Shown here: positions 51 to 1,662 of the stretch, in pieces
Position numbering within the stretch: the first letter of the stretch is position 1
Layout: each line of letters begins with the position of its first letter
DNA from: an uncultured Acetobacteraceae bacterium
Lineage (GTDB): Bacteria; Pseudomonadota; Alphaproteobacteria; Acetobacterales; Acetobacteraceae
Direction: 5' to 3'
Length of the DNA stretch: 64,000 nt
Assembly: GCA_903918315.1 (NCBI GenBank)
Contig: CAIXEA010000029.1
Location: forward strand, 22,777-86,776
The notes under the pieces: model-generated
The model's database searches: none
What the model saw: only the letters and a program-made list of their open reading frames with translations
What the model was told of the DNA's origin: nothing
Made by a program: the position numbers and the translations under genes

Positions 51-701
51 TTATTGGCTGACCCAGACGATGCGGTGGACCCAGGCGACCTCATTGAGGT
101 CGAAACTGAAATCCGGGTGCAACGGATTGAGGCTTTTCAATTCGACCCGGCGCGCCGATCGGCGGGCGAGTTGCTTGGCCATGACAGCCCCCGCACTGGT
201 GCGCACCACGACCCGATCGCCGCGTCGAATGGGCGACGCCGGGGAGACGACGATCAAGTCACCGTCGCGATAGACCGGCTCCATCGAGTCGCCACTGATC
301 TCGAGCGCATAGGCGTTGGGGTCACCGACTTCCGGCAGACTCACCTCATCCCAGCCGCCCCCAACCGGGAAGCCGCCGTCATCGAAATAGCCCTCCGCCC
401 CTGCCTGGGCCATGCCGATGAGAGGCACGCGCCGGACCGCGCCGCGCGGCTGCGCATCGCGGCTGAGCGCGCGCGCGCCCGAAACCAGAGCGGTAAAGGA
501 TTCCAGGGACGCCCCCGTGGCGTTGAGCACCTTGGCTACGCTTTCGGTGCTGGGCCAGCGGGCGCGGCCGTCGGGCATACGCCGTTTGGACACATTGAAC
601 GTCGTTGGATCCAGGCCGGCCTGCTTGGCGAGACCGGAGGCTGACAGACCATATTCGGCTGCCAGCGTGTCGAGCGCGCGCCAGACATCTTCATGCTTCA
701 T
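51..701 (-). CDS. HTH + S24 peptidase autocleaving repressor (CI/LexA-like; probable RogA-family)
   Basis: N-terminal HTH (LSASGLAKQAGLDPTTFN...RWPSTES), Ala-Gly cleavage-type site (AQAGAEG), catalytic Ser (ISGDSMEP) and Lys (VMAKQL); near pyrD as recalled for other alphaproteobacteria. Confidence 0.9.
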   Translation of the reverse strand: MKHEDVWRALDTLAAEYGLSASGLAKQAGLDPTTFNVSKRRMPDGRARWPSTESVAKVLNATGASLESFTALVSGARALSRDAQPRGAVRRVPLIGMAQAGAEGYFDDGGFPVGGGWDEVSLPEVGDPNAYALEISGDSMEPVYRDGDLIVVSPASPIRRGDRVVVRTSAGAVMAKQLARRSARRVELKSLNPLHPDFSFDLNEVAWVHRIVWVSQ

Positions 702-737: not shown

Positions 738-767
738 ATAGGAAAAGGCGCCCGGTGGAATAGGAAA
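738..767. promoter_or_regulatory. Two ATAGGAAA direct repeats, 22-bp period; candidate repressor half-sites
   Basis: ATAGGAAA at 738-745 and 760-767 in the divergent intergenic region; the same TAGGAA core forms a palindrome at 1265-1278. Confidence 0.5.
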
Positions 768-809
768 TGATACTTTGATGTTGCCATAGTATGCAACCCG
801 TGGTTTAGT

Positions 810-824
810 GTTCTTTGTTCGTTC
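810..824 (+). promoter_or_regulatory. Alphaproteobacterial LexA (SOS) box GTTC-N7-GTTC
   Basis: GTTCtttgttcGTTC is an exact match; it lies just after a plausible TTGCCA(781)...TTTAGT/TAGTGT promoter, 35 nt before the ATG at 859. Confidence 0.75.
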
Positions 825-858
825 TCATCTCATTCATCCCATTACAGGAGACGTCCCC

Positions 859-1260
859 ATGGCAACAGCCGCCCAACGCCAAGCGCTCCCCGGATCCACC
901 TCCATCAGAGCCGCGCATCGCGTTGCGCTGAGCGAGCGGACGCAGCCATTTCGCTCCGCGGAAGAGGCCTGGCTGTGGACCATGGGCGCACTGATCGCCC
1001 GGCGCGATGGCACCCGGACCTCATCCAGCCATGGCCGCATCGGCCGCCCCTGTGAGCCCGACGACATCGTCAAGAGCCTCGATGGGCTTTACCGTCAGCG
1101 CCGGATCGACCTCGTGCACGCCCGTATCCTGCGAATCTGGGGTGAGCGCGGGCATGCGCCCGATCCGTCCCACGGCATGGAGCGCGGCGATTGGAAGCTT
1201 TGGAAGGAGGCGTTGGATCGGTTGGAATGGCCGTTGCGGGTGAAGGGGATTGTGTCATAA
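859..1260 (+). CDS. Hypothetical 133-aa protein, possible phage Q/GafZ-like antiterminator
   Basis: AGGAG RBS at 846-850, ATG at 859; motifs EEAWLW, RPCEPDD, HARILRIWG and LWKEALDRLEWPL resemble the layout of Q-family proteins by eye; function is inference. Confidence 0.7.
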   Translation: MATAAQRQALPGSTSIRAAHRVALSERTQPFRSAEEAWLWTMGALIARRDGTRTSSSHGRIGRPCEPDDIVKSLDGLYRQRRIDLVHARILRIWGERGHAPDPSHGMERGDWKLWKEALDRLEWPLRVKGIVS

Positions 1261-1264
1261 TATT

Positions 1265-1278
1265 TTCCTAATTAGGAA
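1265..1278. promoter_or_regulatory. Perfect 14-bp palindrome TTCCTAATTAGGAA (operator candidate)
   Basis: Self-complementary; ends 8 nt upstream of TTGACA at 1287. Confidence 0.65.
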
Positions 1279-1286
1279 TTTTTACA

Positions 1287-1316
1287 TTGACAATCGATCC
1301 ATATCGCCATTAAGGT
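1287..1316 (+). promoter_or_regulatory. sigma70-type promoter TTGACA-N18-TAAGGT
   Basis: Perfect -35 at 1287-1292; TAnnnT -10 at 1311-1316. Confidence 0.55.
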
Positions 1317-1322
1317 TCCCCT

Positions 1323-1407
1323 CGTCAACGGGACGATTCCGTCCAGAGACAACCGCCATTCCTCCACCATCCTCAAAAGCCGCCCCTTTAGGGGGCGGCT
1401 TTTTTTT
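1323..1407 (+). ncRNA. Candidate ~85-nt short transcript (sRNA or attenuated leader)
   Basis: Bounded by the promoter and a strong terminator; alternative hairpins TCGTC/GACGA vs GGACG/CGTCC; C/U-rich CATTCCTCC segment. Confidence 0.4.
1375..1407 (+). terminator. Intrinsic terminator
   Basis: AAAAGCCGCCCC-TTTAG-GGGGCGGCTTTT stem followed by a T8 run (1400-1407). Confidence 0.85.
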
Positions 1408-1425
1408 ATCCGAAAGGGTCCCACC

Positions 1426-1662
1426 ATGGCTTTCGCGGTACGCAACCTCTCCGTCCTCAGCTACGCTAACGGATTTACGCTGTGGCACTACAAGGCCGGC
1501 AAGGATGCCCTGGCCGTGGTGAGCGGGGATAATTATTTCGCCGATGCGTCGGACATGCTCACCGCCGGCGACCTGCTGATGCTGACCGCGGCAGACGGCG
1601 CGCGCATCGTCGCGGTCGCCTTGTCCGACATTCAGACCGTTCTGACGGCGTCGCTGGCCTGA
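1426..1662 (+). CDS. Small conserved hypothetical protein (YANGFTLWHY family), possible phage virion/head-decoration-type protein
   Basis: GAAAGGG RBS; 78 aa with LSVLSYANGFTLWHY and NYFADASDMLTAGDL motifs; the phage association is recalled, not searched. Confidence 0.75.
   Translation: MAFAVRNLSVLSYANGFTLWHYKAGKDALAVVSGDNYFADASDMLTAGDLLMLTAADGARIVAVALSDIQTVLTASLA

Follow-up and report, generated by a model that had tools for sequence, protein, structure and literature searches.

A putative RogA-type repressor module with TAGGAA operators and a LexA box in an alphaproteobacterial genome

Results and Discussion

A small gene module at the beginning of the 64,000-nucleotide stretch of DNA analysed here (the window) is probably controlled by a RogA-type repressor that would act through TAGGAA operators on two units, the divergent gene p2 and a short RNA followed by p3, with LexA as a plausible second lock. 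The window starts with the repressor gene on the minus strand, which is separated by a 157-bp intergenic region from p2 on the plus strand. On the 3' side of p2 follow a 165-bp intergenic region, p3, a gene for a 253-aa membrane protein and then pyrD. The three genes of the module are as follows.

51..701, minus strand: putative RogA-family repressor gene, 216 aa, with an N-terminal HTH, a C-terminal Peptidase_S24 domain and intact Ala-Gly, Ser and Lys
859..1260, plus strand: p2, 133-aa uncharacterised protein, divergent from the repressor
1426..1662, plus strand: p3, 78-aa protein of a phage protein family (phrog_18004, function unknown, E=1.5e-11)

This order, with the repressor and p2 transcribed away from each other and p3 behind p2, is common to 30 related genomes of the same genus, and p3 is syntenic in 28 of the 30. 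As both flanks of the module consist of housekeeping genes (pyrD, ilvD, efp and suhB), the module does not lie in a prophage.

The repressor and its relation to RogA

Residues 93-211 of the repressor were identified as Peptidase_S24 (Pfam PF00717, E=1.6e-22), and the protein as a whole matches phrog_4, 'transcriptional repressor' (E=3.8e-29). The possibility that it is the true LexA was rejected, as the true lexA is located on contig C91. The RogA protein of Caulobacter is a 213-aa HTH/S24-like repressor of gafYZ (Gozzi et al. 2022, PMC9632790), and the RogA-PgafYZ system of Caulobacter crescentus is also found in Tran et al. 2024 (PMC11150451). The window repressor was compared with Caulobacter RogA (CCNA_00080) by primer-deduced termini only. 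The rogA primers, which are assigned in the Methods of PMC9632790, encode MATLSHGQIW... and ...IVWVSQ-stop; the window repressor ends in ...HRIVWVSQ, and the termini of its family read L(T/S/K)H..(I/V)W and ...RIVW(A/V)SQ-stop. These matching terminal peptides, together with the shared architecture of an HTH and an S24-like domain in proteins of 213 and 216 aa, provide good, if partial, evidence for placing the repressor in the RogA family. Homologues with 55-67% identity are present, in single copy, in about one quarter of a class-wide sample of 301 genomes, and conservation within the aligned family is highest in the HTH region.

The residues for self-cleavage were placed by alignment to A84, G85, S119 and K156 of E. 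coli LexA, which gave an Ala-Gly cleavage site (residues ~108-109, in AQ-AG), the Ser (in GDSM) and the Lys (in AKQL) in the repressor. Among 56 aligned homologues with more than 55% identity, Ala, Gly and Ser are each present in 56/56 and Lys in 54/56. With these residues intact, RecA-stimulated cleavage of the repressor may be expected, if with modest confidence. A possible but rather doubtful alternative is that the repressor binds TAGGAA without being RecA-cleavable and answers to another inducer, such as stationary phase or an antirepressor, in which case LexA would be the sole link to DNA damage. Caulobacter RogA, which is described as having no catalytic residues and responds in stationary phase, would be a precedent, LexA-like proteins under RecA-independent control are known (PMC7101444), and Ser and Lys have been lost in many homologues at 30-52% identity, which fits the published statement on Caulobacter RogA. 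The occurrence of this loss among members at 30-52% identity marks it as a subgroup trait and not a family-defining one, and without selection for self-cleavage it would be difficult to account for the retention of Ala-Gly, Ser and Lys in the window repressor and its closer homologues. Judged by these residues, the family has cleavage-competent and cleavage-dead branches, both with TAGGAA upstream.

Putative operators between the repressor and p2

The initial, sequence-only reading of this DNA had pointed to two copies of ATAGGAAA with 22-bp spacing in front of the repressor gene. They are located at 738-745 and 760-767 and are the sole two copies in the window. The shorter TAGGAA occurs 8 times in the window, with 4 of these copies inside 540 bp of the locus, and 224 times in the whole 5.04-Mb genome (64.8% G+C). 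Exact TAGGAA pairs no more than 60 bp apart number 4 genome-wide, and 2 of them are at the locus; no other pair in the genome is convincing, as would be expected for a local repressor. Two candidates for extra regulon sites, a TAGGAA pair inside an RND pump gene and a pair overlapping a LexA box at a radical-SAM gene, were rejected as sites of the repressor. The sites and the promoter in the intergenic region are listed here.

739..754, plus strand: putative operator O1, TAGGAAAAGGCGCCCG (TAGGAA-N4-nnCC); TAGGAA exact in 24/30 relatives, C at +12 in 24
761..776, plus strand: putative operator O2, TAGGAAATGATACTTT, 22 bp from O1; exact in 22/30 relatives, C at +12 in 24
781..809, plus strand: p2 promoter, assigned by eye and not called by the consensus scan; -35 TTGCCA 781-786, 17-bp spacer, -10 TTTAGT 804-809

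Footprinting of the orthologous intergenic regions had been set beforehand as the test of a TAGGAA operator set, and TAGGAA proved to be conserved both in the 30 congeners and across the class. After the upstream regions of the 30 congeners had been anchored on an invariant promoter block, O1 and O2 could both be recognised, each with no more than one mismatch, in 25 relatives, and in 24 of these they are spaced by exactly 22 bp. This fixed spacing of two helical turns suggests that occupancy is probably cooperative. As CC stands at +12/+13 of both O1 and O2, each site takes the form TAGGAA-N4-nnCC, and the pattern of conservation indicates asymmetric 16-bp operators in place of bare half-sites. 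All conserved TAGGAA sites share one orientation, a uniformity that is unusual for a symmetric dimer. O1 would lie inside the spacer of a putative minus-strand promoter of the repressor gene, and autoregulation is proposed on this basis. In this genus, O2 ends 4-6 bp short of the -35 of p2 and does not overlap the core promoter. Repression of p2 via O1 and O2 is therefore less evident here than in those other families that have TAGGAAT inside the promoter spacer.

The spacer of the p2 promoter holds ATGCAACC-N3-GGTT, which is the most conserved non-coding block in the 30 relatives. Taken as the palindrome ATGyAACC-N3-GGTTrCAT, this block is essentially confined to the p2 promoter within each relative's genome, and it may be the site at which p2 acts, or a site of the repressor in another binding mode. 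The interpretation of AACC-N3-GGTT as a third, inverted operator of a TAGGTT type was rejected because its arms are invariant but not its centre, where the 'TA' would have to be. Nor was a sigma-32-type promoter accepted for p2, as the spacing does not fit.

The region downstream of p2

A perfect 14-bp TAGGAA palindrome near the -35 of a downstream promoter had also been proposed from the sequence, and TTCCTAATTAGGAA is indeed present at 1265-1278, 5 nt past the p2 stop codon and 8 nt ahead of TTGACA. It is unique in the 5.04-Mb genome. The features of this region are the following.

1255..1270, minus strand: distal operator-like site TAGGAAAATATTATGA, the left palindrome arm; lineage-specific, common only to the relative L009 and without C at +12
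1273..1288, plus strand: putative promoter-proximal operator TAGGAATTTTTACATT, sharing 2 nt with the beginning of the -35
1287..1316, plus strand: downstream promoter; -35 TTGACA 1287-1292, 18-bp spacer, -10 TAAGGT 1311-1316
1323..1410, plus strand: predicted sRNA-like or leader transcript with a 5' hairpin, a C/U-rich tract and an intrinsic terminator at 1375-1410 (terminator scan)

In an alignment of the downstream regions of 29 relatives, in which the anchor of L022 was corrected by eye, the promoter-proximal TAGGAA is exact in 24/29 and has one mismatch in the other 5, and it stands 13-15 bp before TTGAC in 28-29 of the 29. The TTGAC and TAa..t elements of the promoter are conserved in the same anchored alignment. 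Three close relatives carry a second, direct copy of TAGGAA 20 bp upstream in place of the left palindrome arm. Conservation downstream of p2 is limited to the promoter-proximal TAGGAA and does not extend to the 14-bp palindrome as such. Of the operator set put forward in the sequence-only reading, O1, O2 and the promoter-proximal site are thus conserved, whereas the palindrome arm recurs in L009 only and the description as bare half-sites had to be given up.

The predicted RNA shows compensatory changes in its 5' hairpin and a conserved CUCCUCCC tract (alignment of 27 relatives), and its terminator is strong. A search of positions 600-1800 against Rfam gave no family near its gathering score.

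Association of TAGGAA with the repressor across the class

The class-wide sample comprised 49 loci from other alphaproteobacterial families, 29 in a first set and 20 with more distant homologues of the repressor. In the 29 loci, the density of TAGGAA is 5.3/kb within 200 bp upstream of the repressor gene and 0.11/kb elsewhere (an enrichment of about 48-fold), and with 31 occurrences it ranks first among 60 hexamers of the same composition, for which the median is 2. The 20 more distant homologues show the same pattern. The divergent gene p2 adjoins the repressor in the 30 congeners and in 16-17 of the 29 class-level loci, and TAGGAA is found upstream of the repressor in 9/13 loci without p2 as well, including palindromes of the form TTCCTA-N2-4-TAGGAA in L048 and L053. 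This enrichment, which extends to the loci without p2, indicates that the motif goes with the repressor and not with p2. Across 45 sites, the extended motif reads TAGGAA-wAwwwn-C(c)TA; position +12 is C in 35/45 and is followed by T at +14 and A at +15, and the consensus points to a degenerate TAGGAA-N4-TTCCTA with a weak TTCCTA partner half.

The published data on Caulobacter RogA bear directly on this motif. The sequence-only reading had described the RogA motif, with some reserve, as built on GGAA/TTCC half-sites, and this is right, as PMC9632790 gives GGAA-N4-TTCC. Purified Caulobacter RogA binds PgafYZ fragments with GGAA-N4-TTCC repeats, as mapped by SPR (PMC9632790). The SPR oligo table of the same paper gives the RogA site in ATAGGAATATCTTCC, AATAGGAATATCTTCCTCA, AATAGGAATATCTTCCTCAGTGCGGAATATAAACC and TAGGAATATCTTCC, from which the RogA-bound region can be read as GCGGAATAGGAATATCTTCCTCAGTGCGGAATATAAACCTATAGT; this region contains ATAGGAAT and a full TAGGAA-N4-TTCC (PMC9632790). 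The putative operators of the window share this operator core, ATAGGAA...TTCC, that is, GGAA-N4-TTCC, and in both systems two adjacent sites are present on the target promoter and the location is chromosomal, outside a prophage. The TAGGAA motifs are therefore best regarded, as part of the explanation that we consider probable as a whole, as putative operators of the 51..701 repressor with the form TAGGAA-N4-(T/A)nCC(TA).

Two other assignments of the motif were considered. TAGGAA could be the binding element of p2, which would then be an activator or a Q-like antiterminator recruited at the downstream promoter and reading through the 1375-1410 terminator, with autoregulatory copies upstream. 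The downstream unit does resemble a late promoter followed by a terminator, every TAGGAA site points to the downstream promoters, and p2 is Arg-rich and helical, with Q21 in its list of fold matches. This assignment is nonetheless improbable, given the 9/13 loci that have TAGGAA upstream of the repressor in the absence of p2, the occurrence of the same sequence in DNA bound by purified RogA (PMC9632790) and the lack of a detectable DNA-binding family or fold in p2. The p2 protein has no match in Pfam (DUF6456 included), NCBIfam or PHROG, also at E values up to 10 and with six distant homologues, and its identification as a DUF6456 or GafZ-like protein is thus unsupported. Its AF2 model consists of four helices (pLDDT 77) and gave no match below E=0.7 against the PDB and BFVD, and a p2 profile found nothing below E=0.29 among PDB sequences. 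The Q21 match is not significant (rank 12, E=9.2, probability 0.06, TM 0.35), and identification of p2 as a Q-type antiterminator is thus unsupported.

Alternatively, TAGGAA might not be a dedicated operator but an element associated with promoters, either UP-like or in the role of an unusual -35, or it could be bound by a global factor of the nucleoid or the cell cycle. In many families TTCCTA on the repressor strand does stand about 17 bp upstream of a -10-like TTATGA, and the flanks of TAGGAA are A/T-rich. The variable position of TAGGAA relative to the -35, however, speaks against a promoter element, as the motif precedes the -35 by 14 bp or by about 21 bp or directly follows it, depending on the promoter, and palindromic versions exist in L048, L053 and the window. 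Furthermore, the genomic copies show no genome-wide enrichment and cluster at the locus only, and binding of RogA to such DNA has been published (PMC9632790). This last assignment is highly improbable, and the motif is treated below as a putative operator of the repressor.

The LexA box

The alphaproteobacterial SOS box, known from Rhodobacter, Sinorhizobium and Caulobacter, is a direct repeat, GTTC-N7-GTTC, that is bound by LexA. A perfect match to this repeat had been reported from the sequence for the intergenic region that also carries O1 and O2, and it was found again at the position given here.

810..824, plus strand: LexA box GTTC-N7-GTTC (GTTCTTTGTTCGTTC), abutting the p2 -10 (804-809) and covering the likely transcription start

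The promoter of the genome's own lexA has GAAC-N7-GAAC just past its -35 (GAACCAATATAGAAC), and the recA promoter has three boxes of the same type; the alphaproteobacterial type of LexA box therefore applies in this genome. The 810-824 box agrees with the known SOS box in its exact core, its location close to a promoter and the presence of the same type at lexA and recA. In contrast to the known cases, the promoter region here also holds the putative operators of a second, LexA-like repressor, and within the genus only a subclade has retained the box. It is exact in 4/30 relatives; in L005, L006 and L013 its offset is unchanged, but its N7 differs and its flanks have diverged. In L007, L008 and L009, which belong to the same subclade, it has decayed, so that it is lineage-restricted within the genus. 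Conservation within the genus is weak evidence for the box if taken alone. Among the 16 other families with the p2 promoter, 5 have exact LexA boxes at or just past its -10. Boxes occur at 1.56/kb at the p2 promoter of other families, as compared to 0.012/kb elsewhere in the loci, and in 0/13 loci without p2.

Control of the locus by the local repressor alone, with 810-824 as an incidental T/C-rich repeat of the 5' UTR that LexA does not use, is a real but lesser possibility. In its favour, 26/30 congeners do not have the box, which has decayed in L007, L008 and L009; the genome contains 155 matches to GTTC-N7-GTTC; and GTTC occurs a third time at 817-820, with an overlap that points to simple repetition. 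On the other hand, 155 matches in 5.04 Mb correspond to a chance of about 0.005 for a match in 157 bp, the offset is constant and the N7 different in four species, the equivalent promoter of other families shows an enrichment of about 125-fold, and boxes of this type are present at lexA and recA of the genome itself. Occupancy of 810-824 by LexA is, on this evidence from the DNA, reasonably likely. The repeated and independent placement of LexA boxes on the p2 promoter makes two-tier control by LexA and the local repressor, as proposed in the sequence-only reading, credible for the window.

A proposed mechanism and its relation to known systems

In the arrangement that we propose, dimers of the repressor would occupy O1 and O2, which lie on one face of the helix in the region flanked by the repressor promoter and the divergent p2 promoter, and a third site at 1273-1288, abutting or overlapping the -35, would block the downstream promoter. 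That promoter would yield a short terminated RNA of about 85 nt, and read-through would reach p3. Bound repressor would thereby shut off both p2 and the RNA/p3 unit, the direction of regulation being inferred. LexA would block p2 at its start site and would provide a second lock in this lineage. With the Ala-Gly site and the Ser/Lys dyad intact, DNA damage (RecA*) would be expected to remove LexA as well as the local repressor and so switch the module on.

The module differs from RogA-PgafYZ in several respects. Neither gafYZ nor a gene transfer agent (GTA) is the target here: the GTA hallmark DUF2460 (PF09343) was not found in the genome, with Caulobacter as a positive control, and the termini of p2 differ from those of GafY. 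The TAGGAA sites of the window are located in the repressor's own divergent region, and its Ala-Gly, Ser and Lys are kept; Caulobacter RogA was reported without catalytic residues and gave no ChIP-seq peak at its own promoter (PMC9632790). Autoregulation and self-cleavage can therefore not be transferred from RogA to the window repressor. A second promoter with a putative operator would drive an sRNA-like transcript here, and a LexA box is superimposed.

The OR/PRM-PR region of lambda cI offers a second comparison. Both systems have an HTH-S24 repressor with self-cleavage residues, tandem sites about two helical turns apart and divergent promoters, one for the repressor gene and the other for the genes that are held off. 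Unlike lambda, the module has no surrounding prophage and no Cro-like HTH gene, its operators are strongly asymmetric, and it is inherited across a whole bacterial class. A local repressor, RstR, and LexA act on one promoter region in the rstR-rstA system of CTXphi, a filamentous phage whose repressor and operator are unrelated to those described here.

Implications for the RogA family

So far, RogA has been described in a single organism, in which ChIP gave two targets and the motif was stated only as GGAA-N4-TTCC. The RogA-type operator can now be written as TAGGAA-N4-TTCCTA, conserved across Alphaproteobacteria, and most of the sampled family members keep the self-cleavage residues. The usual partner of the repressor is an uncharacterised divergent protein of 120-140 aa, often with a LexA box, and not an activator of a GTA. 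In the present genome, which lacks the GTA hallmark gene that was tested, the repressor appears to gate p2 and an sRNA-like transcript. The wiring differs from that of the one known case in its intact cleavage residues, its location in the repressor's own divergent region, its new partner gene, its sRNA-like target and its probable LexA lock.

A broader and tentative interpretation is that the RogA family was ancestrally a self-cleaving, SOS-type repressor that held off p2, the founding case of a new, regulator-like protein family and often co-locked by LexA, through a class-wide TAGGAA-N4-TTCCTA operator. The catalytically dead RogA of Caulobacter would then have been co-opted later for control of the GTA, and the repressor of the window may in addition control a trans-acting sRNA whose CUCCUCCC seed is of the anti-Shine-Dalgarno type. 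If this is true, the gating of the sRNA here would link DNA damage to post-transcriptional control. For researchers working on GTAs, the locus and its relatives provide a testable view of the origin of the RogA switch, and for those working on the SOS response, a candidate for a second, very small DNA-damage regulon.

Conservation of the repressor and its putative operator

The repressor encoded at 51–701 (minus strand) probably belongs to the RogA family, and its catalytic Ser and Lys and its Ala-Gly site are retained in all homologues with more than 55% identity. Among the more distant, class-level homologues (30–52% identity, L064–L083), the catalytic Ser and Lys are replaced in most, and the Ala-Gly site is also often replaced. 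The putative operator core TAGGAA is found upstream of the repressor gene both in homologues that keep these residues and in those that have lost them.

In loci from other alphaproteobacterial families (L035–L063), the 25 nt directly before the start codon of the repressor gene were read. In many of these families the start context TTATGAGAAATTGTTCCC-ATG is conserved, a -10-like TTATGA lies about 12 nt before the ATG with TTCCTA, the reverse complement of the operator core, 17 bp further upstream, and the start lacks a Shine-Dalgarno sequence. The lack of a Shine-Dalgarno sequence, together with the position of the TTATGA, suggests that the repressor mRNA may be near-leaderless in many families.

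In loci of other families that lack p2, the divergent gene for an uncharacterised 133-amino acid protein (859–1260, plus strand), the repressor gene often directly adjoins pyrD (L051, L055, L056, and L060). The repressor-pyrD neighbourhood therefore predates, or arose independently of, the p2/p3 insert.

The p2 promoter and the p2-p3 gap

The block at 780–809 of the p2 promoter, CTTGC-N6-GTATGCAACC-N3-GGTT, ranks highest in conservation among the non-coding stretches of the locus. In half of the genus it forms a 19–21-bp palindrome whose centre varies, ATGyAACC-N3-GGTTrCAT(A), and within each genome ATGyAACC-N3-GGTTrCAT is essentially confined to the p2 promoter. One candidate binder is p2 itself.

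Two features lie beyond p2:
1323–1410, sRNA-like transcript downstream of the TTGACA promoter under putative operator control
1426–1662 (plus strand), p3, 78 amino acids, match to phrog_18004 (E = 1.5e-11)

The RNA matched no Rfam family. Its 5' hairpin carries compensatory changes among 27 relatives, its conserved CUCCUCCC tract resembles an anti-Shine-Dalgarno sequence, and its intrinsic terminator is followed by the ribosome-binding site of p3. In one same-genus relative (L008), the p2-p3 gap contains the terminator hairpin (GGACCGCCCC...GGGACGGTCCTTTTTT) four times in tandem instead of once. The match of p3 is to a phage protein family without known function; its synteny is kept within the genus, and p3 was not found beside p2 in other families.

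LexA boxes

Of 16 unrelated families, 5 carry an exact LexA box (GAAC/GTTC-N7) in the p2 promoter, at its -10 or just past it (repressor-p2 intergenic regions of L040, L042, L057, L059, and L062); none was identified in 13 repressor loci lacking p2. Elsewhere in the source genome, the promoter of a radical-SAM gene (G000, contig C74, 65520–65600) has a LexA box, GTTCCTATTATGTTC, adjoining TTGACG, and three boxes lie upstream of recA (contig C44). The radical-SAM and recA boxes are useful seeds to define the SOS regulon of this organism.
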